Numbered from the stretch's first letter, positions 1,354 through 41,396 are shown. The stretch: 64,000 bases of DNA from Anaerolineales bacterium (GCA_034434495.1 DAOTZE010000034.1:14032-78031); one strand, 5' to 3'. Numbers and translations are program-made. The notes: generated by a model from the letters alone, not told the origin.

Positions 1354-3594
1354 TTAATATCTTCCCCGCTCAACCACCGCATCGGGGTTGGGTAAATCTT
1401 GTAACCTTGCAGGGAAGATTTGCACGGCGCAGGCTTTGAATTCAGGGATTTTGGCTTGCGGGTCTAAAGCGTCATTGGTTAATAAATTGGCGGCGGCTTC
1501 GGCAAAATGCCAAGGGAGAAAGACAACGCCGATAGATGTTTTTTCGGTAACAGTTGCTCGTACAATAATTTCACCACGGCGACTAGAAACTTTAACAGGG
1601 TCGCCATTGCGAATGCCGTGCATCTCTGCGTCGGCAGGGTGAATCTCAACCCGCGCTTCGGGGTAGGTTTCGTTCAGCGCAGAATGACGAGTCATCGTGC
1701 CGCCATGCCAATGTTCAAGCAAACGCCCCGTTGTCAATATGAACGGATATTCATCATCAGGTTCTTCACGAATTGGAACATAATCCAAGACGTGAAATTT
1801 TCCTTTTCCGCGCGGAAAATCTTTTGTAAATAGCGTCGGCGTGCCTGGATGGTCTAACGATGGGACAGGGTAAATCAAACCGACTTTTTCAATACGCTCA
1901 TAAGTGATGCCAGCGTAATCTGTGTTCACGCTTCCCATTTCGCGTAAAATCTCTTCAGGCGAAGAATATGCCCAATACGAGGTAGCCACTCCAAGTCTCG
2001 ATTCGATGCGCAGGGCTAAATCGCAAATAATTTGCCAATCAGGGCGAGATTGTCCTAAAGGTTTGTGCGCCGTGCGAACTCGCTGCACACGCCTATCGGT
2101 GTTTGAGAATGTGCCGTCTTTTTCGGCAAAAGAAGCGGCAGGCAAGAATACATCGGCAAATGCGCCGCTTTCATTGATGAAAATATCCTGCGCCACTAAA
2201 AACTCAAGTTGTTGCATGTGATGGCGCACGACATTGAGATTCGGTTCAGACATCATCGGGTTTTCGCCCATGATGAAAAGCGAACGAACGCCTCCTTCAT
2301 GTGCATGGCTGAGGATTTCAGTGGTGGTTAATCCTAGCTTGAGGCTTAACCCGCCCTCTTCTATGTTCCATGCCTTTTCCCATTTGGCGCGGTTTTCGGG
2401 ATTATCCACGCGCATATAACCGGGGTAATGAAACGGCATAGCGCCCATGTCGCTTGCGCCTTGCACATTGTTTTGCCCGCGTAATGGATTTAATCCCGTG
2501 CCGTCGCGCCCAACATGCCCCGTGAGGAAGGCAAGGTGAATGAGCGCCAACGCCGAAGCCGTGCCGTGTGAAAGCTGCGAAATGCCCATGCCCCAATAAA
2601 TTGCGCCGTTTTTGGCTTGGGCATATAAACGCGCGGCTTTGCGAATATCTTCCGCTGGAACGCCGGAAATTTCTTGCGCGTATTCGGGAGTGAATTTTTC
2701 AAGGCTTTCGACATATTCGTCAAAGCCTTCGGTGCGGTCTTTGACAAATTGCCAATTGACCAAATTCTCTTTGACAATAACATGCGCCATTGCCGAAAAT
2801 ACGGGTACGTTTGTGCCGGGCTTTAATGGCAGCCATATTTCGGCAAAATCCACTAAGTCAATGCGGCGCGGGTCAACCACAATCATTTTTGCGCCGTTTT
2901 CTTTTACGGCGGCTTTCATTTGCAAAGCGATGATAGGGTGGTTTTCGGAAGTATTTGACCCCGTGACGATAAACACATCGTTCAACATCACTTGCGAAGC
3001 GGTGTTGCTCATTGCCGAGGAGCCGATGGCTTGCTGTAGCGCCACCACCGAGCCTGCATGACATAATCTTGTGCAATGGTCAACATTATTTGTGCGGAAT
3101 AAAGCCCGATACATTTTTTGTAATAGATAATTATCTTCATTGGTCGCTTTGGCGCAACAATAAACAGCCATTGCATCTGAACCGTCGCGCTTGTAAATGC
3201 GCACGAGATTATCGGCAACAAGGTTGAGCGCGGTATCCCAATCGGTTTCAACCCAGTCCCAGTCATTTGAGATTTGGGAATTGGGAATAGGTTTTCCGTC
3301 AGCGCTAACTGCGAAAACTTGTTCGCGTCCTTTTGGTTTGGGCTTGCCTTCTAATAAATACCTTCTTGCCAACGGAGTTGTGATTCGTTTGGGGTGATAA
3401 ATAAAATCGTAGCCAAATCTACCTTTGACGCATAAATTCCCGTGATTCACGGGCGAATCAAACGGCGAAGTGACTTTGAAAATAAAATCGTCTTTGACGT
3501 GCAATTGCAAAGTACAACCCACCCCACAATATGGACAAGTGGATGTGACAATTCGGTCAGGTTTAATCATAGGCGCTCCAATTTCAACTTTCAA
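1354..3594 (-). CDS. Formate dehydrogenase catalytic (molybdopterin) subunit, Cys-type
   Basis: 746-aa ORF with an N-terminal CPYCGVGC 4Fe-4S motif. [14 protein letters not shown] matches the Sec/Cys active-site stretch of formate dehydrogenases, with a Cys codon here and no TGA. The track start is TTG at 3594; an alternative ATG (MIKPDR) lies at 3570. Confidence 0.85.
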
Positions 3595-4288
3595 CCCGTT
3601 TTGCTTTTCTTTGCTTTCTACCAGTATTCATCACGCTAATCTCTTGCGGGCTCACGCCTTGCTCCAATAAAAATTGGCGTTTGGGTTTTAGCGCCCCAGT
3701 TGGGCAAACGCCCACGCATTGACCGCAAAGCACGCAAGTCGTTTCGGGAATGGCTTTGTCAAAAAATGTGCCGATTTGCGTTTCGTATCCGCGCCCTTCA
3801 AAGTTAATCGCGTATGTAAATTGAGCATCCTCCGCGCACACTTGCACACAACGCCAACACAACAAGCATTTGGAATAGTCGCGGATGTACATGGGGTTAT
3901 CGTCTTTGACTTCCGATTCGCGGCGTTCAGCGTCGGGAAAGCGCTTCTCATCTACGGCGTACTCTTGCATCATCCGTTGAATTTCATCCGCTTCGGATAA
4001 ATCCATCGTGGAATTGAGCATTTCTAAAATTGTTTTTCTTGAGCGAACCACTTTTTCACTTTTGGTTTGTACCTTCATACCTTCAGCCGCTTTGACAATA
4101 CACGCAGGTTGAAGCGTGCGCATTCCCTCCACTTCCACCACGCACACTCTGCACAAGGCGTTTGCCGTTGTTGCGTCGTGATAGCAAATCACAGGCACAT
4201 TTCCGCCGTTTTCACGCGCAACTTCAAGCAAGGTTTTGCCTTCTTCGGCGGTTACTTCTTTATTATCAAGTGTCAGCTTAATTGCCAT
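3584..4288 (-). CDS. NuoG/FdsA-N-terminal-like Fe-S protein (2Fe-2S plus 4Fe-4S clusters)
   Basis: 234-aa ORF with a C-x10-C-x2-C-x13-C ferredoxin motif ([22 protein letters not shown]) and [12 protein letters not shown]. It overlaps the downstream catalytic subunit ORF by 11 nt. Confidence 0.85.
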
Positions 4289-4348
4289 ATCATCTCCGTT
4301 TGAAAGTTGAAAAGTTTATAAGTTAAAACCTTCAAACCTGCCAACTTT

Positions 4349-6013
4349 CTAACTCTTAACCTCAAACAACTCGGGCCACAACTTCATTGCAGATAACACT
4401 GCGCTTGCCGCCGTTTGACCTAAACCGCACAAACTCGCATCCGTCATCGTCCAGCCGACATCTTGCAAGCGGGCAAAATCATCAGAATCAACTTTACCAA
4501 TTGCAATGCGATGCAAAATTTCTTTTTGACGTTGCGTCCCCATTTGACATGGATAACATTTGCCACAAGATTCATGCGCAAAGAAATGACCCAAACGATT
4601 CAACGCATCGCGCATATCGCGCGTCTCATCAAAGACCATCACTACGCCTGAACCTAACGGCAAACCTGCCGCGCGCAAATCTTCAAATGTCATTTTGACA
4701 TCCAAATGTTCAGATGTAGCAAAAGCGCCCGCCGCGCCGCCAAACAAAACGGATTTCAAACTTTTCCCATTCGCTATACCGCCAGCCATATCCAAAACTT
4801 CACGCAATGTCACACCAAACGGAACTTCGTATAAACCGGGCGTAGCGACATCGCCTGATACGCAAAACAATTTCGGACCGGGCGATTTTTCCGTTCCAAT
4901 TTTTCTATACTCAGCGGCGCCTTTTGAAATAATCAAAGGCACATTGCATAACGTTTCAACATTATTAATCACAGTCGGTTTGCTAAACAATCCATGCGTC
5001 GTTGGGAAAGGCGGCTTCACACGCGGGAAACCGCGCTTCCCTTCGATTGACTCAAACAGCGCAGTCTCCTCGCCGCAAATATAAGCGCCCGCGCCGACGC
5101 GAACTTCAATGTCAAAATCTTTTCCTAAATAACCTGCACCGCGCGCCTCATCTAATGCTTTTTCTAAAACGGGAATAATGTATGGATATTCTCCGCGCAC
5201 ATAAATAAAACCTTTGCTTGCGCCAATTGCATACCCCGCAATACACATACCTTCAATCGTTGAATGCGGGTCATCTAACAATAAAATTCTGTCTTTGAAT
5301 GTGCCAGGTTCAGATTCATCCGCGTTACAGATGATATATTTTTGATTCGCTTCCGCTTTGAACGCGCCTTCCCATTTGACTCCTGTTGGGAACGCCGCGC
5401 CTCCCCTCCCCACCAAACCTGATTCTTTAACCTCAGCAATGACTTTATCTTGAGGCATTGACTTGGCTTTCATCAGAGCCTTATATTCGCCATATTCTCT
5501 TAAGTATGTCGTTTTGCCCTTGCCGCAATTTTTTGTTAGTTCCCTTATTTGACCATAGACCATAGACCGCGGACGGTCTTCGCCTTCTCCCACCGTCCAC
5601 TGTCCACCGTTCATCGTCCAAACCGCAGGCGCAAGTTCGCACATGCCAAGGCATGGACTCGGCTCAATCGTTAGAGACAAGTCGGCGCGAGTCCGATGCG
5701 GCTCTATATCATATTGCTGGCACAGTTTTCTTAACAACCCATCCGAATCTTTAATCCCGCAAGCAGGGTCGGTGCAAACGCGGATTACTTTTTTGCCAAT
5801 CGGCTCGTTATAAAACAATGAATAAAATTCAATCACGCCATGCACATCAGCCAATGGCACATGCAAAGTTTTGGCAATCTCTGCCGCCACAGGCTCAGAA
5901 ATCCAACCATAAAGTTTTTGAGCCGCATGCAAGGCTGGTAACAACCCAGAGCGGCTCATCGGAATAAATTTTTCAATTGTAGGTTTGAGTGGGGCAAGGT
6001 CAATGTCAGACAT
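4349..6013 (-). CDS. NAD(H)-binding diaphorase subunit, fused NuoE-like and NuoF-like domains
   Basis: 554-aa ORF. It has an N-terminal NuoE-type thioredoxin-like domain, [10 protein letters not shown] (FMN/NADH site) and an ESCGKCYPC 4Fe-4S motif. Confidence 0.85.
5561..5630. repeat. 7-nt-periodic repeat block embedded in-frame in the NuoE/F-like CDS
   Basis: GACCATA GACCATA GACCGCG GACGGTC TTCGCCT TCTCCCA CCGTCCA CTGTCCA CCGTTCA TCGTCCA. It encodes [24 protein letters not shown] in the interdomain linker. Confidence 0.7.
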
Positions 6014-6080: not shown

Positions 6081-6113
6081 AGGCGACAGTCGCCTTGAAA
6101 GCGACTGTCGCCT
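6081..6113. promoter_or_regulatory. Hairpin/palindrome in the divergent fdh-gntR intergenic region, same core as the operon terminator
   Basis: AGGCGACAGTCGCC ttgaaa GCGACTGTCGCCT. The 12-13-nt core is identical to the stem at 1300-1332, but no T-run follows on either strand. Confidence 0.5.
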
Positions 6114-6162
6114 GAGAATCTCCACTTCCGAATTTACATTAAATTATATATAATATACAATC

Positions 6163-6897
6163 ATGGCAACCATCCTAGAAACTCACAAAATATTAAAGGA
6201 AGAAATCTTCGACGCTTTGCACAGGCAGATTATTGCAGGCAAATATGCGCCTGGCGATTGGCTTCGTCAAGAAGAGATTGCCTCGCAAATGGGCGTCAGT
6301 ATGACTCCCGTGCGCGAAGCGTTAGATTTGCTGGTGGCAAAAGGCATTGCCGAGCGTGTTCCCTATCGCGGCGTGCGTGTACGCGAAATGAATACAAAAG
6401 AAGTGGTAGAAGCCTACGGCTTGCGCCTCATTCTGGAAGCCATCATTGCGCGCGAGGCGGCAACAAACATTACGCCCGAACAAGTGACTCGCCTCAAAAA
6501 AATCATGGATGAAATGGACAGGCATGTTGACTTAAACGAAATGCCGCAAGAAAGACAACTTAGTCGTGAATTCCATGCCGCCATTGCCGAAGCCTCCGGA
6601 AACGCGCTGTTAATTCAACTTTATACCATCGTCTCAAACGCTTTTCCCGATTGGCTTTTGTATGAAGCGCTGTATCGAAAACCAGAATTAGTTAAAAGTA
6701 GCGTTACGCAAACGCATGACGAACACTCCGCAATTTTAGACGCGCTCAAAAAAGGCAATGCAGATTTAGCCGTCAAAGTTTCCATTGAGCATGTTATGGA
6801 ATCTGGCAGATGGTTAGAAAAATACCTGAATGTGCCAGCGAAGTTGTTAAGAGAACAAGAAAAACAAGTTTTACATTTGATTAAGAAAAGCAAATAA
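6163..6897 (+). CDS. GntR-family transcriptional regulator (FadR/FCD subclass)
   Basis: 244-aa ORF with an N-terminal wHTH (EEIASQMGVSMTPVREALDLLVAKGIAE) and a helical C-terminal FCD-like domain. A TATAAT box sits about 10 nt upstream of the ATG and there is no SD. Confidence 0.85.
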   Translation: MATILETHKILKEEIFDALHRQIIAGKYAPGDWLRQEEIASQMGVSMTPVREALDLLVAKGIAERVPYRGVRVREMNTKEVVEAYGLRLILEAIIAREAATNITPEQVTRLKKIMDEMDRHVDLNEMPQERQLSREFHAAIAEASGNALLIQLYTIVSNAFPDWLLYEALYRKPELVKSSVTQTHDEHSAILDALKKGNADLAVKVSIEHVMESGRWLEKYLNVPAKLLREQEKQVLHLIKKSK

Positions 6898-6902
6898 AAA
6901 AA

Positions 6903-6927
6903 CCTAAAGGTCTTAAAGACCTTTAGG
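6903..6927 (+). terminator. Perfect 11-bp hairpin after gntR (no T-run)
   Basis: CCTAAAGGTCT taa AGACCTTTAGG, followed by GTCTAAG-type heptamer sequence. Confidence 0.35.
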
Positions 6928-6967
6928 GTCTAAGATTTAGATTTTGGAATTAAGGAGAATTTATTAT

Positions 6968-7633
6968 ATGACTGAAGATTTAGATGCCTTATACAAGCAA
7001 ATGGCGCAAAGCATTATTGACGGGGATTCAGACCTCTCTGTTGAACTTGCCAAAAAATCTATTGAACTTAAGATGCACCCGCTCGATACAATTACAAAAG
7101 GCTTTGTGCCTGGCGTGAACTACATTGGCGACCAATTTGGCGCGGGCGAAGCCTTTTTACCCGAATTGGTAATGGCAGGCGAAGCCATGAAAGCCGCAGT
7201 GGCTGTACTTGAACCTGAATTGCTAAAACTCGGCGAAGCGCGCGAGATGATGGGGAAAGTGGTGCTGGCGACCGTCGAAGGCGATATTCATGAAATCGGT
7301 AAAACGCTGGTTGGCACAATGTTAAGCGCCTCTGGGTTTGAAGTAACCGACCTGGGCGTAGACCAACCCGCCGATAAAATCATTGGTAAAGCGCTTGAAA
7401 TTGACGCGCAAATTATCGGCATGAGCGCTCTATTAACGACAACCATGGTGCGCCAACGCGAAGTGATTGAAGAATTAGATAAAGAAGGCTTGCGTCCCCG
7501 AATTAAAGTCATGGTCGGCGGCGCGCCCATTACCCGCGAATGGGCGGCGAAAATCAAAGCGGATGGATATTCTGAAGACGCCGTTGGCGCAGTAAAACTA
7601 GCCAAAGAATTGGTTGGAAAAGCAGACCAGTAA
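6968..7633 (+). CDS. Corrinoid (B12-binding) protein of a methyltransferase system (MtgC/MtqC-like)
   Basis: DxHxxG cobalamin-ligand motif (GDIHEIGK), plus SALLTTT and MVGGAP motifs. The ATG at 6968 is preceded by AAGGAG; the track ORF starts further upstream at TTG 6944. Confidence 0.85.
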   Translation: MTEDLDALYKQMAQSIIDGDSDLSVELAKKSIELKMHPLDTITKGFVPGVNYIGDQFGAGEAFLPELVMAGEAMKAAVAVLEPELLKLGEAREMMGKVVLATVEGDIHEIGKTLVGTMLSASGFEVTDLGVDQPADKIIGKALEIDAQIIGMSALLTTTMVRQREVIEELDKEGLRPRIKVMVGGAPITREWAAKIKADGYSEDAVGAVKLAKELVGKADQ

Positions 7634-7680
7634 ATCGTTCGCGAATGGTTTAGTTTGATTGTTATCTCTTTGAATGAGAA

Positions 7681-7716
7681 CGCCAAATTATATAAAAATC
7701 GTTTGGCGGTTTTTTT
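7681..7716 (+). terminator. Intra-operon rho-independent terminator/attenuator after the corrinoid protein gene
   Basis: CGCCAAA (7681-7687) pairs with TTTGGCG (7702-7708), followed by GTTTTTTT. Confidence 0.55.
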
Positions 7717-7737
7717 GATTATCAAGAAAGGCGTTTT

Positions 7738-9216
7738 ATGCAACCCAAACTTTTACTCCTTGACGATGGATTAATTGAAAGAATTTTAGACGAAGCCTAT
7801 CAATTGTTATTAAAGCCTGGCGTAAAAGTTAATAATGAAGAAGCGCGCGATTTGCTAGGGTCGGCTGGCGCGCAAGTGGATAAAGAATCAAACGTCGTCA
7901 AAATTCCAGAGCAAATAGTCCGCAAAGCGTTAGAAAGCGCCCCGCGCGAATTTTATTTATACGATTACGACGGAAACCCAAAGGTCAAATATGGAGGCGA
8001 CGCCGTTCACTTTGACCCAGGCTCATCGGGAATCGCCATGCTTAATCCAGAAACGCTGGAACATGAAACCACCGAAACGCCTCACTTAATCAAATTACTT
8101 AAAGTCGCAGAACAACTATCGCAATATGACGCGCAATCTACCGCCGTAGTTTGCCATGATGTACCGCAAACGATTCAAGATTCATATCGCTTATATTTAG
8201 CCTTACTATTTTCTAAAAAACCGATTGTCACAGGCGCGTTCACCAACAAAACCGTTGTGGATATGATTGACATGCTTGCCATTATGGCAGGCGGGCATGA
8301 ACAATCTAAAAATAAACCACGCGCCATCTTTGACGTTTGCCCTGCCCCGCCATTAATTTGGAGCAACTTCGCTTCTGGAAATTTAATTGCATTAGCGCGC
8401 GCGGGCATCCCTGCCGAAATCGTCTCCGTGCCGTTATCTGGCGCGGCGGCTCCCGTTACCATGCTGGGAACTGTCACACAGCATACGGCAGAATGCTTGG
8501 CGGGGATAACGATTCATCAATTAGCAAAAGCGGGTTCGCCGATTGTTTGGGGCGGCGCGGCGGCAATCTTTGATATGAAAAAAGGCGCAACGCCAATGGG
8601 CGCAATTGAAACCGCCATGCTCGATTGTTCATACGCGCAAGTGGCAAAATCATTAAACATGCCCACGCACACTTATCTCGGCGCAACCGACTCAAAACTG
8701 GTGGACGCGCAAGCCGGGCTTGAAAGCGGCATGACTGCCCTCGTGGGCGCGCTAAGCGGCATTAACATGATTTCTGGCTCAGGTATGTTAGATTTTCTCT
8801 CATGTCATAGCGCCGAAAAACTCGTCATTGACGCGGAAGGCATTGCAATGGCAAAACGTATGTTGGCGGGCGTTAAACTTCATACCGAAACGTTAGCCAC
8901 AGGCTTTTACGACGACAAAATCAACTTCAAAGGCGGCGATTTTCTCAAACAAAAAATCACCATGAAGTTATTCCGCGAAGAACAACACTTACCCAGCGAA
9001 GTGATAGATAGAGACTCCATGCGCGACTGGAAGAACGCAGGCTCGTTAGACGCTTTCTCCCGCGCCAAGAAAATGGTCGGCAATTTACTCGCTTCTTATA
9101 CGAGACCCGAACTTGATTCTGCAAAAGTGACGCAGTTACATACCTTTATGCTTAACCTTGCGAAAAAAGCGGGCGTTGAGCAATTACCGCCTATTGAAGA
9201 TTTTCAAATTGCATAA
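7738..9216 (+). CDS. MttB-superfamily methyltransferase (non-pyrrolysine; quaternary amine:corrinoid methyltransferase-like), paralogue 1
   Basis: 492-aa uninterrupted ORF with no in-frame TAG. The N-terminus LLDDGLIERILDEAYQLLLKPGVKV and overall length fit the trimethylamine methyltransferase (COG5598) family. Confidence 0.8.
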   Translation: MQPKLLLLDDGLIERILDEAYQLLLKPGVKVNNEEARDLLGSAGAQVDKESNVVKIPEQIVRKALESAPREFYLYDYDGNPKVKYGGDAVHFDPGSSGIAMLNPETLEHETTETPHLIKLLKVAEQLSQYDAQSTAVVCHDVPQTIQDSYRLYLALLFSKKPIVTGAFTNKTVVDMIDMLAIMAGGHEQSKNKPRAIFDVCPAPPLIWSNFASGNLIALARAGIPAEIVSVPLSGAAAPVTMLGTVTQHTAECLAGITIHQLAKAGSPIVWGGAAAIFDMKKGATPMGAIETAMLDCSYAQVAKSLNMPTHTYLGATDSKLVDAQAGLESGMTALVGALSGINMISGSGMLDFLSCHSAEKLVIDAEGIAMAKRMLAGVKLHTETLATGFYDDKINFKGGDFLKQKITMKLFREEQHLPSEVIDRDSMRDWKNAGSLDAFSRAKKMVGNLLASYTRPELDSAKVTQLHTFMLNLAKKAGVEQLPPIEDFQIA

Positions 9217-9219
9217 ACT

Positions 9220-10977
9220 ATGTTAACTCTCCCCCAACTTCTACGCATCCCAAACGTGGACACGGGTTTAGGTTTCAGCGTTTCGCCTGATGAAAGAAAA
9301 ATTGTGTTTGCGTGGAATAAAAATGGAAAGTGGGATTTGTGGGAAAAAGAGATTAGAGGATTGGGGACTAGAGAATTAGTCAGTAGCGTAATTGGGTCTA
9401 AATTTTCTCCAAAACATTCGCCTGACGGGAAATATCTTGCTTATGTCGTTGATTATGATGGCAGTGAGTCATACTATATTGTTCTCTGCGATTTACAGAA
9501 TGACTCGATTATCAATCTCATGCCCTGTTTTGGCTACGCGCAACAACCGAATTTTGATTTCTCGCCAGATACAAAACAACTAGCCGTCCTTTCCGATGAG
9601 AGCGGTTGTTTTGCTTTGTATCTTTTAGATATTCAAACAAGAGAAAAAAAATTATTGCTAGACGTCCACCGCCCTATTTGGAATGTGACTTGGTCTCCTG
9701 ACGGAAAATATATCGCCGCAGAGGCTGAGGCAGAGGCAAGCAATAGAGCAATTTATGTAGTTGAAGCGGCAAGCGGAAAGTGGAAAGCGATAAAGCAGGA
9801 TAGCGAAGTATTAAACGCACAACATCCCGTATGGTCACCCGATTCAAAACATTTATTATTTTCATGTGAAAACGGCGAATGGCATAACATTGGTTTATAT
9901 GACGTTGAATCTGAAAAAATTACTTGGATAACAAATTCTGTTGGGGATGATACACAACCGGCTTGCTCGCGGAGCGGGGAATACATCGGCTGGGTACATG
10001 CCGAAGGAGCAAGAACCAGCGTTCAAGTTAAGAAGAGAAGCGGCGAAGCGTTTGAAGTCAAAATCGGCGACGGCGTACATTCGTTTCCAACCATCATTCG
10101 CCACGAAGTCGTTTTGATATACGAAGACGTAAATCGCCCGCCTGATTTGTGGAAAATTAATTTAGAAAACGGAAAAGCGATTCAATTAACAAAATCAAGC
10201 GAAATAGATTTTGATTTTACAAAGCCTGAAGAAGTTTATTACAACAATGTGCCGGCGCTGTTATTTCGTGGGGAAAAAGATTGCGCCGTGATTGATATTC
10301 ACGGCGGACCGAATTGGCATTATCAAAATATGTGGAATCCGTTTGTGAATGCAATGCTGTCGCGCGGTTGGACGGTGTTGCAACCGAACTATCGCGGCTC
10401 AACAGGCTATGGGAAAACATGGCAAAACGCAAGCCGATACGACATGGGCGGAGTGGACGCAGACGATTGCGCGGCGGGCGCGGCGTTCTTAATGGAAAAC
10501 AATTTAGCCGATAAAAATAAAATCGCCGTAACAGGACGAAGCCATGGCGGTTTTTTAACGATGTGTTGTTTGACGAATTATCCCGATTTATTTTGCGGCG
10601 GTTCGGCAGTTGTGCCGTTTTTGAATTGGATAAAATCGCATTACGAATCGCGCGAAGATTTACAACATTGGAATATTGAAAACATGGGCGACCCTGAAAA
10701 GAATAAAGAGTTATGGATGAAACGCTCGCCGTATTTCTTTTTGGATAAAGTGAACGCGCCTGTGCAACTGATTTGCGGCGCAAACGACCCGCGCTGCCCT
10801 GCGTCCGATTCGGTTGACGCGCGCGATAAGTTACTTGAACTTGGCAAAGAGGTTGAATTGCTGTTATATGAAGACGAAGGGCATTCATTTTTGAACATTG
10901 AAAATATCATTGATTCAGAAACGAGGCGAATAGAATTTTTAGAAAGAGTTTTAACGGCAAACAAAAATCTTAGCTGA
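9220..10977 (+). CDS. S9-family serine peptidase (beta-propeller plus alpha/beta hydrolase; acylaminoacyl/prolyl oligopeptidase-like)
   Basis: 585-aa ORF. Repeated SPDGK propeller blades; catalytic GRSHGGF (Ser), GANDPRC (Asp) and DEGHSF (His). Confidence 0.85.
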   Translation: MLTLPQLLRIPNVDTGLGFSVSPDERKIVFAWNKNGKWDLWEKEIRGLGTRELVSSVIGSKFSPKHSPDGKYLAYVVDYDGSESYYIVLCDLQNDSIINLMPCFGYAQQPNFDFSPDTKQLAVLSDESGCFALYLLDIQTREKKLLLDVHRPIWNVTWSPDGKYIAAEAEAEASNRAIYVVEAASGKWKAIKQDSEVLNAQHPVWSPDSKHLLFSCENGEWHNIGLYDVESEKITWITNSVGDDTQPACSRSGEYIGWVHAEGARTSVQVKKRSGEAFEVKIGDGVHSFPTIIRHEVVLIYEDVNRPPDLWKINLENGKAIQLTKSSEIDFDFTKPEEVYYNNVPALLFRGEKDCAVIDIHGGPNWHYQNMWNPFVNAMLSRGWTVLQPNYRGSTGYGKTWQNASRYDMGGVDADDCAAGAAFLMENNLADKNKIAVTGRSHGGFLTMCCLTNYPDLFCGGSAVVPFLNWIKSHYESREDLQHWNIENMGDPEKNKELWMKRSPYFFLDKVNAPVQLICGANDPRCPASDSVDARDKLLELGKEVELLLYEDEGHSFLNIENIIDSETRRIEFLERVLTANKNLS

Positions 10978-11026
10978 CGCGGTCGGCGATAAATAATTCA
11001 CATAAAAACGCAATACTGGAGACTAC

Positions 11027-12445
11027 ATGCCCTATCTAAAATTTTTATCTGATGAAGACGTGAAAGCCATGCACGAAGCCACGCTACAGGTAATGAGCGA
11101 GGTCGGCATTATTTGGACGCACCAACCAAGTTTGGATATTTTGCTCCAAGCGGGTTGCACAATGAAAGAAAACCGCGTATGTATGCCGCCCGATTTGGTG
11201 ATGGAGTGCGTCGCCAAAGCGAATAAGCGCCCAAAGATTCGCGGGCGCAACGGCACAATCAATGAGTTGGGCGGCGGGAATTTGTATTTTCATAACCTTG
11301 GCGGCGCGCGCGATATTTACGACCCAATCACCAATACCAGACGGGCGGCGACAAATGAAGACTGCGTGAACGCTACGCGCGTTTTAGACGCGCTTCCCAA
11401 TTGCAATAACGTCACGCCGTTTTTCACGCCGCCCGATGTGGCGAATGAAATGATGGCGTTGCACATGTATCGGCATACGCTTTCTAACACGGTTAAGCCT
11501 GTGCAAGGACCTGGCATTCAATTTGGGCATGAAGTGAAATATGCGGTTGAGATGGCGGCAGTGATTGGCATTGAGCCACATGAGTTAACGCTTTCGCTTT
11601 CGCCCGTTAGCCCGCTCACCATGCACGATGTTGCCGCCCAAGCGGTGATGGATATGGCAAACGCGGGGGTCATTCATGCGAATTTACCCGCGCCTACAGG
11701 CGGCGCCACTTCGCCTATGACGATTACTGGAAGCCTCGTGCAACAAAGCGCAGAAACGCTTGCGCCGCTTGTCCTTGCTCAAATCATTAACCCTGGCTGC
11801 GGCGTTGTATATTGCGGGCGCTTGGGGTTGCTTGAACCCCGCACAGGTTTAATTTGGGGCGGCGTGGAACTAGGCATTTCATCCGCCGCAACGGTTCAAT
11901 TAGGACATTATTATGGGTTTTCAGTCAATGTATATGGGTTTTCGACCAACGCCCACACGCTTGACGCGCAAAACGCATTTGAACGCGGACTGAACGCTTC
12001 GCTCCCCGCTTTGGCTGGGGCAGATGAACTCTCCGGCATTGGCGAAATGGAAGCGGGCGTGATGGGGTCTTTCGCTCAAATGGTGTTGGATAATGAATTA
12101 GCAAAAAGCGTGCATCGGCAGCGTCAGGGCTTATCGGCAGACGCAGACCATTTGGCGGTAGAAGTCATTAATACGGTGATGAACACTAATCGAAATTATT
12201 TAGCCAGCAAACACACGCTCAAACACTTAAAAGCCGGCGAAATGGCATTAACCAAATTTGCAGAGCGAAACTCGTGGGATACATGGGAAGATAAAATGAG
12301 CCGCAAGCAAATGGCAGATTACGCAATTGAAGAAGCGCAGAGAATCTTGCGCGAGCATGTTGTTCCGCCACTAGAACCGCAACAAGAAGCCGAGTTAGAT
12401 AAGATTATGGCGGCGGCGGAGAAAGAAACTGTAAAGAAAAAATGA
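11027..12445 (+). CDS. MttB-superfamily methyltransferase (non-pyrrolysine), paralogue 2
   Basis: 472-aa uninterrupted ORF. The N-terminus LSDEDVKAMHEATLQVMSEVGIIW is typical of the family. GGAG lies upstream of the ATG. Confidence 0.8.
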   Translation: MPYLKFLSDEDVKAMHEATLQVMSEVGIIWTHQPSLDILLQAGCTMKENRVCMPPDLVMECVAKANKRPKIRGRNGTINELGGGNLYFHNLGGARDIYDPITNTRRAATNEDCVNATRVLDALPNCNNVTPFFTPPDVANEMMALHMYRHTLSNTVKPVQGPGIQFGHEVKYAVEMAAVIGIEPHELTLSLSPVSPLTMHDVAAQAVMDMANAGVIHANLPAPTGGATSPMTITGSLVQQSAETLAPLVLAQIINPGCGVVYCGRLGLLEPRTGLIWGGVELGISSAATVQLGHYYGFSVNVYGFSTNAHTLDAQNAFERGLNASLPALAGADELSGIGEMEAGVMGSFAQMVLDNELAKSVHRQRQGLSADADHLAVEVINTVMNTNRNYLASKHTLKHLKAGEMALTKFAERNSWDTWEDKMSRKQMADYAIEEAQRILREHVVPPLEPQQEAELDKIMAAAEKETVKKK

Positions 12446-12503
12446 GCGAAGGAATACTAAGCGCGATTTGCAATAAGAAAGAAGCGTTATAAGGAGAATA
12501 AAA

Positions 12504-13661
12504 ATGATTAAACAGGCTCATGCAATTTCGGAAGAATTAATCGAATGGAGAAGAGATTTTCATCAACACCCTGAAACAGGGTTTGATGTGTTTTGCACGG
12601 CTGGCATCGTCGCCGATGAATTAGAAAAGATGGGTTACAGAGTGAAGCGCGGAGTGGGCAAAACAGGCGTGGTGGCAGAGATAGGCGAAGGCGGAAAACT
12701 GGTCGCTATTCGGGCAGATATGGACGCGCTCCCGTTACAAGAATTAAATGAAACAGAGTACAAATCAAAAATAGAGAACAAAATGCACGCCTGCGGGCAT
12801 GACGCGCATACCGCCATGGCGCTGGGTGCGGCAAAAATTTTGGCAAAAGAAAAATTAAACGGGCGCGTTCGTTTTTTATTTCAGCCATGCGAAGAAACGG
12901 CGGACGAAGAAGGGAAAAGCGGCGCGCAGCGAATGTACGATGAAGGCGCAGTGGAAGGCGTGGATTATGTCATTGCCCAGCATGTAGACCCAACCAGCCC
13001 CGTCGGCACCATTGCCATCAATGAAGGCGCAAGCGGCGGAGGCGTCACCTCATGGAGCGCTAAAATTAGAGGCAAAGGCGGGCATGGAGCGTACCCGCAT
13101 AAATCGAACGACCCATTTGTTTTGCTCGCCCATGTGATTATGGGAATCAATTCCATTATTTCCAGAAGAATAGACCCCTTTGAACCGACCGTGATTAGCA
13201 TTGGCGCCGTAAACGGCGGGTTTACTGAAAACGTCATACCTGACCAAATTGAAATGAAAGGCACGATGCGCTTCACTTCATTAGAAGTGGAAAAACAATT
13301 GCGCGAAGAAATGACCCGCGTATTTGAAATAACAAAAACGCTGGGCGGCGAATATGAATTAAAGTTTTTATTTGGCGGCTTGCCCTTGATAAACGATAAA
13401 TTTGTGGCTGAAACAATTGAAAAAGTAGGCATAGATTTATTAGGCGCGGGCAAAGTCCAACCGCTGCACAAATCCTTAGGGGCGGAAGATTTCCCCGAAT
13501 TTTTGAAGAACGCCCCCGGCGCCATGTTTACGCTCGGCACGATGATTGAAGGACGCGAAATTTACGAACTACATCACCCCAAATTTGATTTGGACGAACG
13601 CGCCCTGCCGATTGGCACAGCCGTCTTAGCCGAAACTGCGATGAGGTTTTTGAAAGAATAA
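12504..13661 (+). CDS. M20D amidohydrolase (N-acyl-amino acid amidohydrolase/aminoacylase-like)
   Basis: 385-aa ORF with WRRDFHQHPE, IRADMDALP and HACGHDAH metal-binding motifs. AAGGAG RBS. Confidence 0.85.
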   Translation: MIKQAHAISEELIEWRRDFHQHPETGFDVFCTAGIVADELEKMGYRVKRGVGKTGVVAEIGEGGKLVAIRADMDALPLQELNETEYKSKIENKMHACGHDAHTAMALGAAKILAKEKLNGRVRFLFQPCEETADEEGKSGAQRMYDEGAVEGVDYVIAQHVDPTSPVGTIAINEGASGGGVTSWSAKIRGKGGHGAYPHKSNDPFVLLAHVIMGINSIISRRIDPFEPTVISIGAVNGGFTENVIPDQIEMKGTMRFTSLEVEKQLREEMTRVFEITKTLGGEYELKFLFGGLPLINDKFVAETIEKVGIDLLGAGKVQPLHKSLGAEDFPEFLKNAPGAMFTLGTMIEGREIYELHHPKFDLDERALPIGTAVLAETAMRFLKE

Positions 13662-13727
13662 TTTTTCACCGCAAAGAACGCCTATGAAGATTTGCGGCGC
13701 TTTACGGTAAATGTTTATCGGAGAAAA

Positions 13728-14606
13728 ATGCACACCACACTTAAATCAAACTCAAAAGAAGTAACGATTGGCATTGATAAACCGTTTGTCATCATTGGCG
13801 AAAAAATCAACCCAACGGGAATTAAAAAACTTGGGCAAGCGTTGGTGGAACGAAACATGGATTTTGTTAAACATCTCGCCAAACGCCAAGTGGATTGGGG
13901 AGCGGATGTGTTAGACGTCAATGTCGGTCACCCGCAAATTGAAGAAGCCGAAGTGATACCGTTGGTCGTTGAAGCGGTGCAATCCGTCGTAGATATCCCG
14001 CTGTGCATTGATTCAAATGAGCCGAAAATTTTAGAAGCGGGTTTAAACGCCATCAAAGGCGGAAAGCCGTTAATCAATTCTGTCAACGGAGAAGAAAAAC
14101 AACTGGCGAGCGTTCTGCCCATCGTCAAAGAAAGAGGCGCGGCAGTAATTGGGCTGACCATTGCAGACGAAGGCATCCCGCCTACAGCGGAAGGTCGCTT
14201 AGCCGCGGCGGATAAAATCATTCAACGCGCCGCAAAATTAGGAATCCCAATCGAAGATATTATCATTGACCCATTGGTAATGACGGTCGGACACGATAGC
14301 AAAGCCGCCACCGTCACATTGAAAACCATTGAGTTGGTTAAAAAAGAATTTGGCGTGAATATCAGTTTAGGCGCGAGCAACGTTTCGTTTGGCTTGCCCG
14401 ATAGACATTCCGTCAACGCTGCGTTTCTGGCGCTGGCAATGCAAACAGGCGCAACATGCTCCATCACCGACCCTATCAAACTAGGCGGCGCAATCAAAGC
14501 CGCAGATTTACTGCTGGGCAAAGACCCTAATTCCATTCGGTATCTCAAATATTTTCGCACAACAGAAAAATTAAGAGAAGTAGAGAATTCGGCAAAAGCG
14601 CAATAA
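13728..14606 (+). CDS. Pterin-binding methyltransferase (methylcorrinoid:tetrahydrofolate methyltransferase, MtgA/MtqA/AcsE-like)
   Basis: TIM-barrel pterin-binding domain pattern (IGEKINPTG, LDVNVG, INSV, DPLV, GASNVSFGLP). The ATG at 13728 follows GGAGA; the track ORF starts at TTG 13692. Confidence 0.75.
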   Translation: MHTTLKSNSKEVTIGIDKPFVIIGEKINPTGIKKLGQALVERNMDFVKHLAKRQVDWGADVLDVNVGHPQIEEAEVIPLVVEAVQSVVDIPLCIDSNEPKILEAGLNAIKGGKPLINSVNGEEKQLASVLPIVKERGAAVIGLTIADEGIPPTAEGRLAAADKIIQRAAKLGIPIEDIIIDPLVMTVGHDSKAATVTLKTIELVKKEFGVNISLGASNVSFGLPDRHSVNAAFLALAMQTGATCSITDPIKLGGAIKAADLLLGKDPNSIRYLKYFRTTEKLREVENSAKAQ

Positions 14607-14626
14607 TTGAAGTTAAACTTGATGAA

Positions 14627-15703
14627 ATGAAAAAACTCTGCTGGGCGTTTTTTATTTCATCGCTTTTGATATCTGCCTGCGCGTCGGCGCCGCCTCTCTC
14701 TACGCCGACCGTTGCGCCTGCCTCCCCAACCTTTACTTTAACTTCAACATTCACCCCCGAGCCGACAGCCACCTTCACCCCCATCCCCACCGCCACGCCC
14801 ATTCCCCACCCAATGAGCATTATAGCTTTGCGAAATGGGAATTACCCCGGCAGTGAAATTGTGATTGAAAAAGAACTAGAGCGCGGCTTAAACTATCGCC
14901 GCTATTACGCTTATTATCTTTCAGAAGGCTTGAAAATCTACGCCTTGCTAACCGTTCCAAACGGCGAACCGCCCGAAGGCGGCTTCCCTGCAATTGTTTT
15001 CAATCATGGTTATATTCCGCCCGATGTGTATAAAACTACAGAAAGATACATTCATTATGTAGATGAAATTGCGAAGGCTGGGTATGTTGTCTTTCGCATT
15101 GACTATCGCGGGCATGATAATTCGGAAGGCGAAGCCACTGGCGCGTATGGGCATCCTGGCTATCAAATTGACGTGCTGAATGCGGTCGCTTCGCTCAAAC
15201 AACATCCGCAGGTGAACCCTGAAAAAATTGGCATGTGGGGTCATTCGATGGGTGGATATTTGACTTTGCGCGCGATGGTGATTTCATCGGATGTAAAAGT
15301 CGGCGTGATTTGGGCAGGCGTTATCGCTTCGTATCCCGACTTGTTATATAACTGGCGGCGGACTGGCGCATTTACGCCTTCGCCCAGTTCTACAGGCAGA
15401 GGCTGGCGCAGCGCGTGGATTGAACAATACGGCGCTCCTGAACAAAACCCTGAATTTTGGAATTCCATTTCAGCCACATCTTACCTCGCCGATTTATCGG
15501 GACCGATACAACTCCATCACGGCACGAACGATGAAGATGTGCCTTATGAATTTTCCATTCGCGTGGCGGAGCTGGCACGCCTGCAAGGCAAAATTGCCGA
15601 TTTATATTTGTACGACGGCGATAACCACAACATCGCTACAAATTTTTATACCGCTATGGGGCAAACGATTGAGTTTTTTGATATTTACTTGAAGTCGCCC
15701 TAG
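14627..15703 (+). CDS. Secreted lipoprotein, S9/dienelactone-hydrolase-type alpha/beta hydrolase
   Basis: Signal peptide with a lipobox (LLISAC), then a Thr/Pro-rich linker. Catalytic triad candidates are WGHSMGG (Ser), GTNDEDV (Asp) and GDNHNI (His). Confidence 0.75.
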   Translation: MKKLCWAFFISSLLISACASAPPLSTPTVAPASPTFTLTSTFTPEPTATFTPIPTATPIPHPMSIIALRNGNYPGSEIVIEKELERGLNYRRYYAYYLSEGLKIYALLTVPNGEPPEGGFPAIVFNHGYIPPDVYKTTERYIHYVDEIAKAGYVVFRIDYRGHDNSEGEATGAYGHPGYQIDVLNAVASLKQHPQVNPEKIGMWGHSMGGYLTLRAMVISSDVKVGVIWAGVIASYPDLLYNWRRTGAFTPSPSSTGRGWRSAWIEQYGAPEQNPEFWNSISATSYLADLSGPIQLHHGTNDEDVPYEFSIRVAELARLQGKIADLYLYDGDNHNIATNFYTAMGQTIEFFDIYLKSP

Positions 15704-17971: not shown

Positions 17972-18922
17972 ATGAATCCGATTGAAAAAATTTTACAAAA
18001 ACAAAATATTGTAATTATAGATGGCGCATTGGCGACTGAACTTGAAGCGCGCGGTTGCGATTTGAACGACGCATTATGGTCGGCAAAGGTGTTGATGGAA
18101 CAGCCTGAATTAATTCAGCAGGTGCATTTGGATTATTTCAACGCCGGTGCGGATGTCGCTATCACTGCTAGTTATCAAGCGACTGTGCAAGGCTTTGAGC
18201 AGCGCGGTTTGAGCGAAAGTCAAGCCATTGAGTTGATTCAAAGGTCTGTGCAATTAGCAAAAAACGCGCGCGATGCGTTTTGGTCCAATGAAAAAAATCG
18301 AATCCATAGACAATATCCATTGATTGCAGGCTCAGTTGGACCGTATGGGGCGTTTCTTGCAGACGGCTCGGAATATCGCGGCGATTATCGCTTAACAGAA
18401 AAAGAATACATGGATTTTCATCGCCCGCGTATGAAGGCGTTGATTGAAGCAGGCGTGGATGTATTCGCCTGCGAAACAATCCCTAATTTTGACGAAGCGC
18501 AAGCGTTGGTTAAGTTATTAAGTGAATTCCCAAATGCAAGTGCATGGTTTACATTTACAGCAAAAGATGGCGAGCATATTAGTCATGGAGAAAGAATTGG
18601 GGATGTTGCAAAGCGGTTAGATTCATATCCGCAAGCGGAGGCGGTTGGCATTAATTGTTCGTCTCCATTGCATATTCCTTCTTTGATTGATGAGATAAAG
18701 AAAAATACAAGCAAACCAATTATTGTGTACCCCAATTCGGGTGAATTTTATGTCGCGGTTACAAACTCGTGGCACGGAGAAACCTCTTGCGAGTCGTTTG
18801 GCTTACAAGCAAAAGATTGGTATGAACATGGAGCAAGATTAATTGGCGGATGTTGTAGGACGACGCCTGAGCATATCAAAGAAATAAAAAGGATAATGAC
18901 TCTGTACGGGTCAAATGATTAA
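17972..18922 (+). CDS. Homocysteine S-methyltransferase (MmuM/YbgG-like)
   Basis: 316-aa ORF with IIDGALATELE and GINCS motifs and a C-terminal GGCCRTTPEHI zinc-binding motif. Confidence 0.85.
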   Translation: MNPIEKILQKQNIVIIDGALATELEARGCDLNDALWSAKVLMEQPELIQQVHLDYFNAGADVAITASYQATVQGFEQRGLSESQAIELIQRSVQLAKNARDAFWSNEKNRIHRQYPLIAGSVGPYGAFLADGSEYRGDYRLTEKEYMDFHRPRMKALIEAGVDVFACETIPNFDEAQALVKLLSEFPNASAWFTFTAKDGEHISHGERIGDVAKRLDSYPQAEAVGINCSSPLHIPSLIDEIKKNTSKPIIVYPNSGEFYVAVTNSWHGETSCESFGLQAKDWYEHGARLIGGCCRTTPEHIKEIKRIMTLYGSND

Positions 18923-18931: not shown

Positions 18932-19984
18932 ATGAAATTAAGCAACATGATTACAGCAGTGGATTTGCACGCTTGCGGCGAGCCGGGGCGCGTTATCACA
19001 GGCGGCGTTTTGGATGTGCCAGGCAAAACCATGTTTGAGAAGATGAAATATTTTGAAAAGCATCATGATGACATTCGTTTGCGAATGTTGCGTGAGCCGC
19101 GCGGATACCCCGCTTTGTGTTGCAATGTGATTCTTCCGCCAACCAAGCCACAAGCCGATGCGGGTTTTATCATCATGGAGCAGACGGAATATCCGCCCAT
19201 GTCTGGGACGAATACGATTTGTGTGGCGACGACGCTTCTAGAGTTGGGAATGTTGAAGATGACCGAACCAGTTACCACGTTCACGCTTGAAGCGCCTGCG
19301 GGTTTGGTCGAAATTCGCGCGGAGTGTAAAGATGGCAAAGTCACGCAGGTCACATTTAAAAACGTCCCAGCCTTTGCAGTGCATTTGGATGTAAAAGTGG
19401 AAGTCCCAAAACTTGGCACAGTAACAGTTGACGTTGCATGGGGCGGGATGTTTTATGTGATTGCAGACGCTTCGCAATTTGATTTGAAATTGACTCCTGA
19501 TGAAGGAAAAGATATTACGCGAATCACCGAGATGATAAAAACCGCTACTGCGGAGCAATATCCTGTGACGCATCCTGATAACCCAGAAATTACTGGACCC
19601 ACCATTGGTCAACTTTCTGCGCCGCCAACAAACCCAAAAGCACATCGCAAAAATGTGGTAACTGTTTCCACAGGAAAATTGGATTGGAACAAACCCTCCA
19701 CATGGACAGGCGTGATTGACCGCTCGCCTTGCGGAACAGGTACCTGCGCAAAAATGGCGGTGATGTATGCCAAAGGTGAATTAGGATTGAATCAAGATTT
19801 TTATCACGAAGGAATTTTAGGAACTTTATTTACTGGAAGATTAGTTGAAGAAACACAAGTTGGGAAATATAAAGCCGTTGTGCCAACGATTGGAGGCACG
19901 GCGTGGATTACGGGAATCAATCAATTCGTGGTTGACTCAAGTGACCCTTACCCGAACGGCTTTACGGTTGGGGATATTTGGTAA
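18932..19984 (+). CDS. Proline racemase / hydroxyproline epimerase family protein, apparent Ser/Cys dyad
   Basis: 350-aa ORF with HACGEPGRVITGG and DRSPCGTGTCAK motifs. The first catalytic position reads PPMSGTNT where canonical members have MCGH. Confidence 0.75.
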   Translation: MKLSNMITAVDLHACGEPGRVITGGVLDVPGKTMFEKMKYFEKHHDDIRLRMLREPRGYPALCCNVILPPTKPQADAGFIIMEQTEYPPMSGTNTICVATTLLELGMLKMTEPVTTFTLEAPAGLVEIRAECKDGKVTQVTFKNVPAFAVHLDVKVEVPKLGTVTVDVAWGGMFYVIADASQFDLKLTPDEGKDITRITEMIKTATAEQYPVTHPDNPEITGPTIGQLSAPPTNPKAHRKNVVTVSTGKLDWNKPSTWTGVIDRSPCGTGTCAKMAVMYAKGELGLNQDFYHEGILGTLFTGRLVEETQVGKYKAVVPTIGGTAWITGINQFVVDSSDPYPNGFTVGDIW

Positions 19985-41282: not shown

Positions 41283-41396
41283 AACTACCTCCAAGTTGAG
41301 GCAAGTGTAAATATCTTTTCTTTCAATTGCTTGCAAAGGCTATCAGAATTAAGAGCGGTTTTCAGTAATCAAGTGAAAGAAGAAAGAGGAAAGAAA

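Follow-up and report, generated by a model that had tools for sequence, protein, structure and literature searches.

Gene content of the locus

The stretch analysed here (hereafter, the window) comprises 64,000 nucleotides of a metagenome-assembled genome (MAG) of an Anaerolineales bacterium (Chloroflexota; GCA_034434495.1, DAOTZE010000034.1:14032-78031). At positions 6163–15703 it carries a corrinoid methyltransferase locus in which the genes of two MttB-superfamily proteins (MttB-1 and MttB-2) are interleaved with those of a peptidase and an amidohydrolase. An earlier note had described eight co-directional genes at this position and had suggested that the hydrolases and the methyltransferases form a coupled pathway. 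The eight genes, with their positions and domain content, were borne out by open reading frame (ORF) calling on the 64-kb window and by Pfam and NCBIfam profile scans of the window proteins, all eight lying on the + strand with intergenic spacings of 3–104 nt. Two gene boundaries were revised: because orthologue N-termini and independent gene calls (221 and 292 aa) place the starts of the corrinoid protein and of the tetrahydrofolate methyltransferase at ATG 6968 and ATG 13728, respectively, these downstream codons most likely supersede the upstream TTG starts. Neither MttB ORF contains an in-frame TAG, as the note had stated, nor a TGA or TAA, and no gene of the locus has an internal stop. 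The eight genes are as follows:

6163–6897, + strand: GntR/FCD-family transcription regulator (PF00392 and PF07729), first gene of the operon
6968–7633, + strand: Corr, corrinoid (cobalamin-binding) methyl-carrier protein, 221 aa (PF02607 and PF02310; start corrected)
7738–9216, + strand: MttB-1, subfamily 'B1' of the non-pyrrolysine (non-Pyl) MttB superfamily, 492 aa (PF06253, 285 bits)
9220–10977, + strand: S9prop, cytoplasmic S9 serine peptidase with an N-terminal PD40 beta-propeller (PF00326, 161 bits, and PD40)
11027–12445, + strand: MttB-2, small distinct subfamily 'B2' of the non-Pyl MttB superfamily, 472 aa (PF06253, 223 bits)
12504–13661, + strand: M20D amidohydrolase of the N-acyl-amino-acid amidohydrolase/carboxypeptidase type (TIGR01891, 335.6 bits)
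13728–14606, + strand: MeTHF-MT, methyl-corrinoid:tetrahydrofolate methyltransferase (MeTr/MtgA type), 292 aa (PF00809, PRK07535; start corrected)
14627–15703, + strand: S9lip, lipoprotein alpha/beta-hydrolase, 358 aa, with the S9-like catalytic domain only (PF00326, 73 bits)

Active sites of the MttB proteins

Both MttB proteins match PF06253 over its full length (cut-off 25 bits; profile span 29–493/497 of 500), lack an in-frame UAG, and have an ordinary residue at the position of the pyrrolysine (Ala316 in MttB-1, Ser in MttB-2), as do non-Pyl members of the superfamily. Neither has the features of the Pyl-dependent trimethylamine (TMA) methyltransferase MttB: the scores against TIGR02369 (MttB-1: 366 bits; MttB-2: 335 bits) are below the cut-off of 525, and of the other two hot-spot residues Tyr364 is Ser in both proteins and Gly110 is Ser in MttB-1, being retained as Gly in MttB-2. 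The best PDB match of MttB-1 is the Methanosarcina barkeri MttB (7xcl, 207 bits), followed by MtgB (182 bits), and that of MttB-2 is MtgB (155 bits). Identity to these two solved proteins is ~26–30% for both (27–28% for MttB-2), and MttB-1 and MttB-2 share 20% identity with each other.

The substrate site of MtgB was defined in 2026 by mutagenesis and a ligand-bound structure, in which Y97 and F356 contact the quaternary nitrogen and R312 and H348 bind the carboxylate; R312, to which the acidic group of the substrate binds, is shared by MtgB, MtcB, MtpB, MthB, and MtyB (PMC13080624). The catalytic hot spots of M. barkeri MttB (G110, Pyl334, and Y364) lie in the same columns as this site (PMC9842639). 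We read the active-site columns from pairwise HMMER alignments and from one 195-sequence alignment, using MtgB and M. barkeri MttB as references from the PDB alignments; MtpB, MtcB, MtyB, and MthB were compared only via the statement in PMC13080624. The residues at Y97, R312, the Pyl334 position (MtgB L317), H348, and F356 are, in this order:

MttB-1: Ser, His, Ala, Ser, Leu (80/80 orthologues; Ala at the Pyl position in 78/80)
MttB-2: Gly, Asn, Ser, Ser, Gly (51/51 orthologues)
'B0', a paralogue present in relatives only: Gly, Ser, Ala, Leu, Ser (35/35)

The aromatic pair of MtgB (Y97 and F356) is thus Ser/Leu in MttB-1 and Gly/Gly in MttB-2, and the carboxylate pair (R312 and H348) is His/Ser and Asn/Ser, respectively. 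Because these columns are near-invariant within the groups, each paralogue group has its own fixed active-site signature, none of which is betaine-like. Judged by these residues, neither MttB is a betaine enzyme of any characterised kind. The earlier note had proposed a comparison with characterised members such as MtgB, and had held that tight grouping with glycine-betaine enzymes, together with hydrolases inactive on N-modified substrates, would refute its idea; no such grouping was seen (26–30% identity to MtgB and M. barkeri MttB, four substrate residues replaced). With small residues standing in for bulky or charged ones, the MttB pockets may be roomier than that of MtgB.

Conservation of the cluster in relatives

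Related loci were collected by a scan of one genome per GTDB species, and each ORF of these loci was compared by BLAST with the window proteins. An MttB-1 orthologue (74–93% identity) is present in 80 species-level loci, almost all of them titled Anaerolineales, Anaerolineae, or Chloroflexota, including Ca. Villigracilis. The canonical gene order is GntR – Corr – (MttB 'B0') – MttB-1 – (MttB 'B1-prime') – S9prop – MttB-2 – M20D – MeTHF-MT – (homocysteine methyltransferase) – S9lip. The order counts were taken from the 49 loci that extend ≥8.5 kb downstream of MttB-1: S9prop, MttB-2, and M20D lie behind MttB-1 in 40 of them, and M20D is kept in 46; MeTHF-MT is also present in 32/49 and the S9lip gene in 29/49, the latter being missing from a quarter of otherwise complete clusters. 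S9prop has diverged to 45–78% identity, yet its position is kept. The earlier note had held that an order not conserved in relatives would mean chance juxtaposition; the arrangement recurs in dozens of species, and S9 and M20 genes co-occur with MttB genes across related genomes at the frequencies just given. The gene order is not chance.

Proteins identical to those of the window are present in public collections, where the named members of their clusters come from 'Anaerolineales bacterium' and 'Chloroflexi bacterium OLB14' MAGs. For each MttB there are well over 100 cluster representatives at ≥79% identity, and the named ones are nearly all from Anaerolineales, Anaerolineae, or Chloroflexota. 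Two records with ~80% identical MttB orthologues carry other names (L060, Syntrophothermus sp.; P0282, Bacteroidota bacterium), and are probably mis-binned contigs rather than cases of horizontal transfer. Clusters of relatives contain up to three extra MttB paralogues, giving up to five MttB subfamilies, and the window lineage has a reduced, two-paralogue version. Extra paralogues are located, for instance, at 8441–9892 and 11754–13229 of locus L021 and at 10597–12018 of locus L155. 'B0' has 28% identity to MttB-2 and the highest score against the TMA MttB model (436 bits), 'B1-prime' has 72% identity to MttB-1, and 'Bx', a fifth MttB type, is located after M20D.

In one sub-lineage (L008 5719–7590; L073 2450–4305), an MFS transporter gene, preceded by a cytidylyltransferase-like gene, lies on the same strand directly upstream of GntR and may encode an alternative importer. 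Near a reduced cluster (L033 14002–15486) there is a gene for cytochrome oxidase subunit I, which suggests that these organisms are probably not strict anaerobes, like the aerobic hosts of the MtgBCDE system.

Candidate promoter and operon structure

Two features of the GntR region bear on the regulation of the cluster:

6143–6160, + strand: promoter/operator candidate, ATTATATATAAT palindrome and TACAAT (conserved motif, sigma-70-like match)
6903–6927, no strand assigned: perfect 11-bp-stem hairpin between GntR and Corr (lineage-specific)

The AT-rich 12-bp palindrome ATTATATATAAT is directly followed by the -10-like TACAAT, 2 nt 5' of the GntR ATG, and this motif is the top sigma-70-like match of the region. 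The same arrangement (ATTATATATAAT, then nTAyAAT) is found upstream of GntR in 63/63 related loci that have upstream DNA, and in many of them, as in the window, it directly abuts the GntR start codon. The exact 12-mer has a single copy in each locus (1.24 Mb of related sequence searched) and a single copy in the whole 64 kb of the window. By this conservation, the motif is likely a promoter with an overlapping palindromic operator, giving a nearly leaderless transcript. One invariant promoter/operator motif suggests that the operon is a single dedicated unit. No convincing internal terminator was found within the operon, where terminator-like matches numbered 16 against 21.8 expected. In most relatives, GntR and Corr are separated by 6–18 nt with a GGAGG ribosome-binding site.

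Two other candidate elements were rejected. The hairpin at 6903–6927 was ruled out as a conserved terminator or operator, being lineage-specific and missing from most relatives, a few of which carry unrelated hairpins at the GntR-Corr junction. The paired palindromes GGCGACAGTCGCC 5' of GntR were ruled out as an operator, being conserved in no relative and recurring elsewhere in the window. Paired copies of this 13-bp palindrome (GGCGACAGTCGCC / GCGACTGTCGC) lie at 6084–6114 (intergenic, 5' of GntR) and near 1301–1335, with a further site at 7269, and they look REP-like because they recur in the window and are not conserved in relatives.

Hydrolases of the cluster

S9prop starts 3 nt after MttB-1, has no signal peptide, and shows an acylaminoacyl-peptidase-like (S9C) architecture, that is, an alpha/beta-hydrolase domain with GxSxGG, Asp, and His behind an N-terminal propeller. 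Its triad (S441 in GRSHGG, D523, and H555) is invariant in 52/52 orthologues. The best PDB matches, which cover the catalytic domain only, are 5l8s ('amino acyl peptidase') and the Aeropyrum acylamino-acid-releasing enzyme; NCBIfam matches (Dpp5 and others) are all far below cut-off. M20D exceeds the TIGR01891 cut-off (335.6 vs. 153.75 bits) and remains below the equivalog cut-offs of CpsA (344 vs. 500) and DoeB2 (223 vs. 550). Its best PDB matches are ILL2 (1xmb), YxeP (1ysj), and an N-acyl-glutamine aminoacylase (6slf), and the motif HAC97GH99D together with E130, E131, H160, and H357 is invariant in 53/53 orthologues.

In S9lip, a lipobox (LISA-C18) precedes a Pro/Thr-rich linker, and both Cys18 and the triad S207/D302/H334 are invariant in 30/30 orthologues. 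It also matches other alpha/beta-hydrolase families, and its PDB matches are weak (esterases/MHETase and DPP4 catalytic domains). From these features, S9lip is predicted to be tethered outside the membrane by this linker, and it could be a peptidase or an esterase.

Corrinoid, folate, and homocysteine modules

Corr, with its B12-binding_2 and B12-binding domains, scores just above the cut-off of TIGR02370 (216.2 vs. 215.3) and below that of the MtgC-specific NF047995 (223 vs. 310). In its motif DIHEIGK (D114-x-H116-x-x-G119), D114, H116, and G119 are invariant in 68/68 orthologues. MeTHF-MT exceeds the cut-off of PRK07535 (290.3 vs. 259 bits), with MeTr (2yci/2e7f) and a 290-aa chain deposited as 'dihydropteroate synthase DHPS' (4o0q) as best PDB matches. 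Two sets of neighbouring genes may be relevant to the fate of the methyl group:

17972–18922, + strand: homocysteine S-methyltransferase (MmuM/YbgG type), accessory member (PF02574; NF007020, 451 bits)
1354–6013, - strand: divergent formate-dehydrogenase-like genes, encoding a molybdopterin subunit, an Fe-S subunit, and a NuoE/NuoF fusion (Pfam, NCBIfam)

The homocysteine methyltransferase is assigned by NF007020 (cut-off 215), and its score against the Bhmt model is low (85.6 vs. 338). In the window it is located outside the operon, displaced behind a convergent antiporter gene. An orthologue (70–73% identity) is found between the MeTHF-MT and S9lip genes in 10 species, and in 9/10 its start overlaps the MeTHF-MT stop by 4 nt, pointing to translational coupling; in L001–L003 it directly follows the S9lip gene. 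Altogether the homocysteine module is present in 12/49 clusters. As far as gene content can tell, the homocysteine S-methyltransferase at 17972–18922 belongs to the system as an accessory. All components of an MtgBCDE-type set (corrinoid, pterin, PF02574, and MttB) are present, the PF02574 protein being of the MmuM type.

A proline-racemase-family gene (18932–19984) adjoins the homocysteine methyltransferase gene; the protein is below the cut-offs for trans-3-hydroxyproline dehydratase, proline racemase, and 4-hydroxyproline epimerase. Its second catalytic motif, DRSPCGTG, is present, and the first reads PMSGT, which we take to be Ser replacing the usual Cys. The gene was ruled out as part of the core, as no relatives other than the closest ones (L002 and L003) have it next to the cluster. 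The formate-dehydrogenase-like trio lies upstream of GntR in ~26/80 related loci; this association is weak, and the adjacency may be inherited gene order only.

Distant MttB-2 relatives and their neighbourhoods

The homologue lists of both MttB proteins were saturated by Anaerolineales orthologues of ≥79% identity; long-distance gene context was obtained, through 50%-identity representatives and a metagenome scan, for the MttB-2 subfamily only. Among 1.84 billion representatives at 50% identity there are only ~8 full-length MttB-2 relatives with 38–58% identity, after which scores fall to the general level of the superfamily. These were aligned, and a scan of metagenome contigs yielded 80 loci whose MttB is 45–59% identical to MttB-2. 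The distant members retain the Gly/Asn/Ser/Ser/Gly signature (76–79/79 at every position except that of Pyl, where 67/79 have Ser), and the invariant residues specific to the subfamily include D333, E334, and E340. Named relatives of this distant type are from Anaerolineae/Chloroflexota only.

In 19/33 loci with enough downstream DNA, a SBP_bac_5 protein is encoded by one of the next three genes; after it come genes for permeases of the DppB/C type and for ATPases that contain the oligo_HPY domain. An Opp/Dpp component or an amide hydrolase lies on the same strand within four genes in 38/44 loci, and the hydrolases beside these MttB-2 genes are of several kinds (S9 of a second kind, M20D, C45/AAT, and Amidohydro_3). 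A compact operon in locus L164 reads C45 – S9 – SBP5 – DppB – DppC – DppD – DppF – Amidohydro_3 – MttB-2 type – C45, and in L150 and L155 a complete window-type cluster is followed by an ABC importer, so that these loci bridge the two layouts. The MttB-2 neighbourhoods have clearly been rebuilt while their theme stayed constant: an importer, amide hydrolases, and MttB-2. The association of hydrolases with MttB genes, which the earlier note had read from a single locus, is thereby supported.

Downstream of the compact operon (L164 12858–19153) are genes for two LysW-like zinc ribbons, a lysine-2,3-aminomutase-like radical SAM enzyme, two ATP-grasp ligases, an acetyltransferase, and a histone-deacetylase-family enzyme, which look like a beta-lysine or modified-lysine set. 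In L099 and L101, a saccharopine-dehydrogenase gene lies directly 5' of MttB. Together, the lysine genes of L164 and the saccharopine dehydrogenase of L099 and L101 give a faint hint of lysine-related substrates.

Proposed pathway for amide-linked methylated compounds

Based on gene content, active-site residues, and gene order, we propose that the locus is a dedicated, GntR-controlled operon for methylated nitrogen compounds that arrive amide-linked, with hydrolases and MttB proteins serving one substrate stream and hydrolysis coming first. This reading is given a probability of about 0.5. The likeliest substrates would be methylated amino acids in short peptides or N-acyl conjugates. The conjugate would be brought in by S9lip, where present, and by an importer, which is an Opp/Dpp-type ABC system in relatives and would be encoded elsewhere in this genome; S9lip may also pre-process substrates. 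Cytoplasmic S9prop and M20D would then cut the amide bonds, and MttB-1 and MttB-2 would each bind a different methylated product (or the uncleaved conjugate) and donate a single methyl group to the corrinoid protein that they share, in its Co(I) state. From there, MeTHF-MT would pass the methyl group to tetrahydrofolate (THF), and the homocysteine S-methyltransferase may pass it to homocysteine, yielding methionine. Methyl-THF would be oxidised, possibly to formate and CO2 via the adjacent, NAD-linked formate dehydrogenase. What we infer is that hydrolases and MttB proteins share a substrate stream, in which order the steps run, what the substrates are, and that homocysteine serves as an acceptor. 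The coupled pathway of the earlier note gains from the conserved gene order, the non-betaine MttB proteins, and the reshuffled MttB-2 contexts, and it goes beyond this evidence in substrate chemistry and step order.

Several observations weigh against the proposal. The window has neither an importer nor a RamA-type activase among the ORFs scanned, ~8/49 species have the cluster without MeTHF-MT and S9lip genes within 10 kb, and a few species have MttB-1 with M20D only, or MttB-1 alone. Because such reduced forms exist, the system appears modular, with separable parts. All evidence comes from one bacterial class, so the conservation is in part due to shared ancestry. Nickel, opines, and glutathione are further ligands of family-5 binding proteins, and one SBP_bac_5 protein compared with the NCBIfam models Opp4A, NikA, CntA, and GsiB was below all four cut-offs. 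MmuM-type enzymes are known to use S-methylmethionine or AdoMet, not methyl-corrinoid, and M20D and S9 enzymes are not known to act on N-methylated substrates.

A more specific version is rather doubtful: the MttB-2 subfamily, and perhaps MttB-1, would be corrinoid demethylases for methylated proteinogenic amino acids derived from proteins and peptides, such as N-epsilon-methylated lysines or N-terminally methylated residues. If this were true, Anaerolineae would have a non-oxidative route from protein methyl marks to the folate and methionine pools. They would then be the first members of the MttB family to act on a substrate other than a betaine, be it an amino acid or a peptide, and the operon would be the first B12-dependent methyl-transfer system described as coupled to peptidases.

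To our knowledge, the MttB superfamily has thousands of members and a handful of known substrates, all of them free small quaternary amines or TMA. In full-text literature searches, no paper was found that connects peptidases, peptide importers, or methyl-lysine with genes of the MttB family, or that deals with these MttB-type genes in Anaerolineales or Villigracilis, consistent with the impression of the earlier note that the coupling had not been described. The machinery of MttB, corrinoid protein, and THF methyltransferase is of a known kind. What is new are the fixed non-betaine MttB subfamilies, their stable coupling to amide hydrolases and peptide-type import, and the MmuM-type homocysteine module. 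There are at least two (up to five in relatives) conserved MttB subfamilies without betaine-binding residues that are genetically tied to peptidases, aminoacylases, and peptide-type importers, and the operon offers a well-delimited gene set with a candidate operator as a testable lead on orphan MttB function. If the coupling is real, it would add methylated amino acids or peptides as a new substrate class for B12-dependent demethylation, and a new source of one-carbon units and methionine from cell debris for the Anaerolineae that are abundant in activated sludge, anammox reactors, sediments, and groundwater.

Alternative explanations

The MttB proteins and the hydrolases may be co-regulated without sharing a substrate, the former demethylating free small methylamines or onium compounds (e.g., an unrecognised betaine, tertiary or secondary amines like dimethylglycine or sarcosine, or a sulfonium compound like S-methylmethionine) and the latter being general peptide scavengers in the same operon, with both activities providing cells that grow on cell debris with carbon, nitrogen, and one-carbon units. 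We consider this unlikely, though it deserves to be taken seriously, given that the characterised non-Pyl MttB proteins all act on free small quaternary amines (PMC13080624, PMC12155760). The reduced loci with MttB-1 alone or MttB-1 and M20D only, the MFS transporter that precedes GntR in some relatives, and the family assignment of the MmuM-type homocysteine methyltransferase as an S-methylmethionine enzyme point the same way. However, the carboxylate-binding Arg/His and the aromatic pair of betaine enzymes are missing in all paralogues, and no BCCT/OpuA transporter was found in the scanned window ORFs or in the annotated subset of related-locus neighbours. The MttB-2 subfamily, moreover, stays beside amide hydrolases and a family-5 ABC importer after extensive reshuffling, and because this association survives reshuffling, co-regulation of unrelated functions would be hard to maintain.

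The order of steps may also be the reverse of the one proposed: the MttB proteins would first strip hydrolysis-blocking N-methyl groups, at the N-terminus or on a side chain, from intact imported peptides or conjugates, which the hydrolases would then degrade. This is improbable. Both MttB proteins have other residues in place of the Tyr, Arg, His, and Phe that constrict the pocket of MtgB, which would allow a larger cavity, the invariant acidic residues D333, E334, and E340 of MttB-2 could bind an amino group, and the MttB gene of L164 follows the importer and lies between hydrolase genes. However, no MttB-family enzyme is known to accept a peptide, and the size of the pocket is deduced from sequence only. 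Furthermore, S9C-type peptidases handle N-blocked peptides, so prior unblocking would not be needed.

A reading of the cluster as chiefly a split cobalamin-dependent methionine synthase, assembled from corrinoid, pterin, and homocysteine modules, with the MttB proteins and hydrolases as minor or unrelated additions, is very unlikely. Three MetH-like catalytic modules are indeed encoded as separate proteins, the folate and homocysteine modules are translationally coupled in 9 species, and in Ruegeria and Phaeobacter methionine synthesis requires the MtgCDE modules (PMC12478193). However, the homocysteine module occurs in only 12/49 clusters and is MmuM-type rather than MetH- or Bhmt-like, the conserved core consists of MttB, S9, and M20D genes, and 2–5 MttB paralogues would be superfluous for a methionine synthase alone.

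Finally, a chance or purely inherited juxtaposition of functionally unlinked hydrolases and methyltransferases, which the origin of all loci from one class and the persistence of gene order by descent would allow, is scarcely credible in view of the 3-nt gap between MttB-1 and S9prop, the single conserved promoter motif, the order kept despite divergence of S9prop to 45% identity, and the independent recruitment of similar functions around MttB-2 relatives in other layouts.

Other features of the window

Among the larger ORFs of the 64-kb window matched against Pfam, neither a RACo (RamA-type) domain nor a BCCT/OpuA-type betaine transporter was found, several small ORFs lying outside the scan; the earlier note had likewise reported both as absent. 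A RamA-type activase gene may lie elsewhere in the genome. An Rfam scan of the window returned only a tRNA, with no riboswitch (e.g., cobalamin) near the operon. After the proline-racemase-like gene is an ORF (20044–20727, 227 aa) without Pfam or NCBIfam match, and a longer one (31027–32664, 545 aa) has no Pfam match. The window also contains DUF1361 paralogues in tandem (40584–42149), a molybdoenzyme of the xanthine-dehydrogenase/CO-dehydrogenase type (44140–48208), and an IS200-like (Y1 transposase) gene (56668–57246).

Comparison with known systems

The locus follows the scheme of MtgB/MtgC/MtgA of Desulfitobacterium hafniense and of MtpB, MtcB, MtyB, and MthB of Eubacterium limosum, in which a non-Pyl MttB TIM-barrel protein methylates a corrinoid protein, whose methyl group is then handed on to THF by a pterin-binding methyltransferase. 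As in MtgB-type systems, several MttB paralogues share one corrinoid protein (PMC13080624, PMC12478193). The differences from MtgB are the low identity (~26–29%) and the replacement of all four substrate residues, including the Arg kept in every characterised member; at the level of the gene cluster, peptidase and amidohydrolase genes are interleaved, and no betaine transporter or RamA is present among the window ORFs scanned. M. barkeri MttB (7xcl), the best-scoring solved relative of MttB-1, has the same fold family and a corrinoid partner, whereas the proteins described here have no UAG/Pyl and score under the TIGR02369 cut-off.

In the MtgBCDE system of Ruegeria pomeroyi and Phaeobacter inhibens, too, MttB and corrinoid proteins operate with a pterin-binding methyltransferase and an independent PF02574 homocysteine module, which ties demethylation to the synthesis of methionine (PMC12478193). 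MtgBCDE further resembles the present system in having multiple MttB paralogues per genome and in occurring in organisms that are not strict anaerobes. Its PF02574 protein is Bhmt-like, whereas that of the present system is MmuM-type and an accessory found in fewer than half of the clusters. Hydrolases form no part of the proteobacterial system, which acts on glycine betaine.

The pairing of an S9 propeller peptidase with an M20-family N-acyl-amino-acid amidohydrolase recalls the APEH (S9C) and ACY1 (M20) route for N-blocked peptides. ACY1 belongs to M20A, whereas the enzyme here is M20D, and the present pair sits in a methyl-transfer operon; the likeness is one of gene content.

The closest precedent for substrate preparation is the MthK-MthB-MthC-MthA choline pathway of Eubacterium limosum, in which a cluster-encoded accessory enzyme, the kinase MthK, makes phosphocholine, the form accepted by MthB (PMC12155760). 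There the substrate is activated by a kinase, whereas the accessory enzymes here are amide hydrolases, which would prepare the substrate by releasing it from a conjugate.

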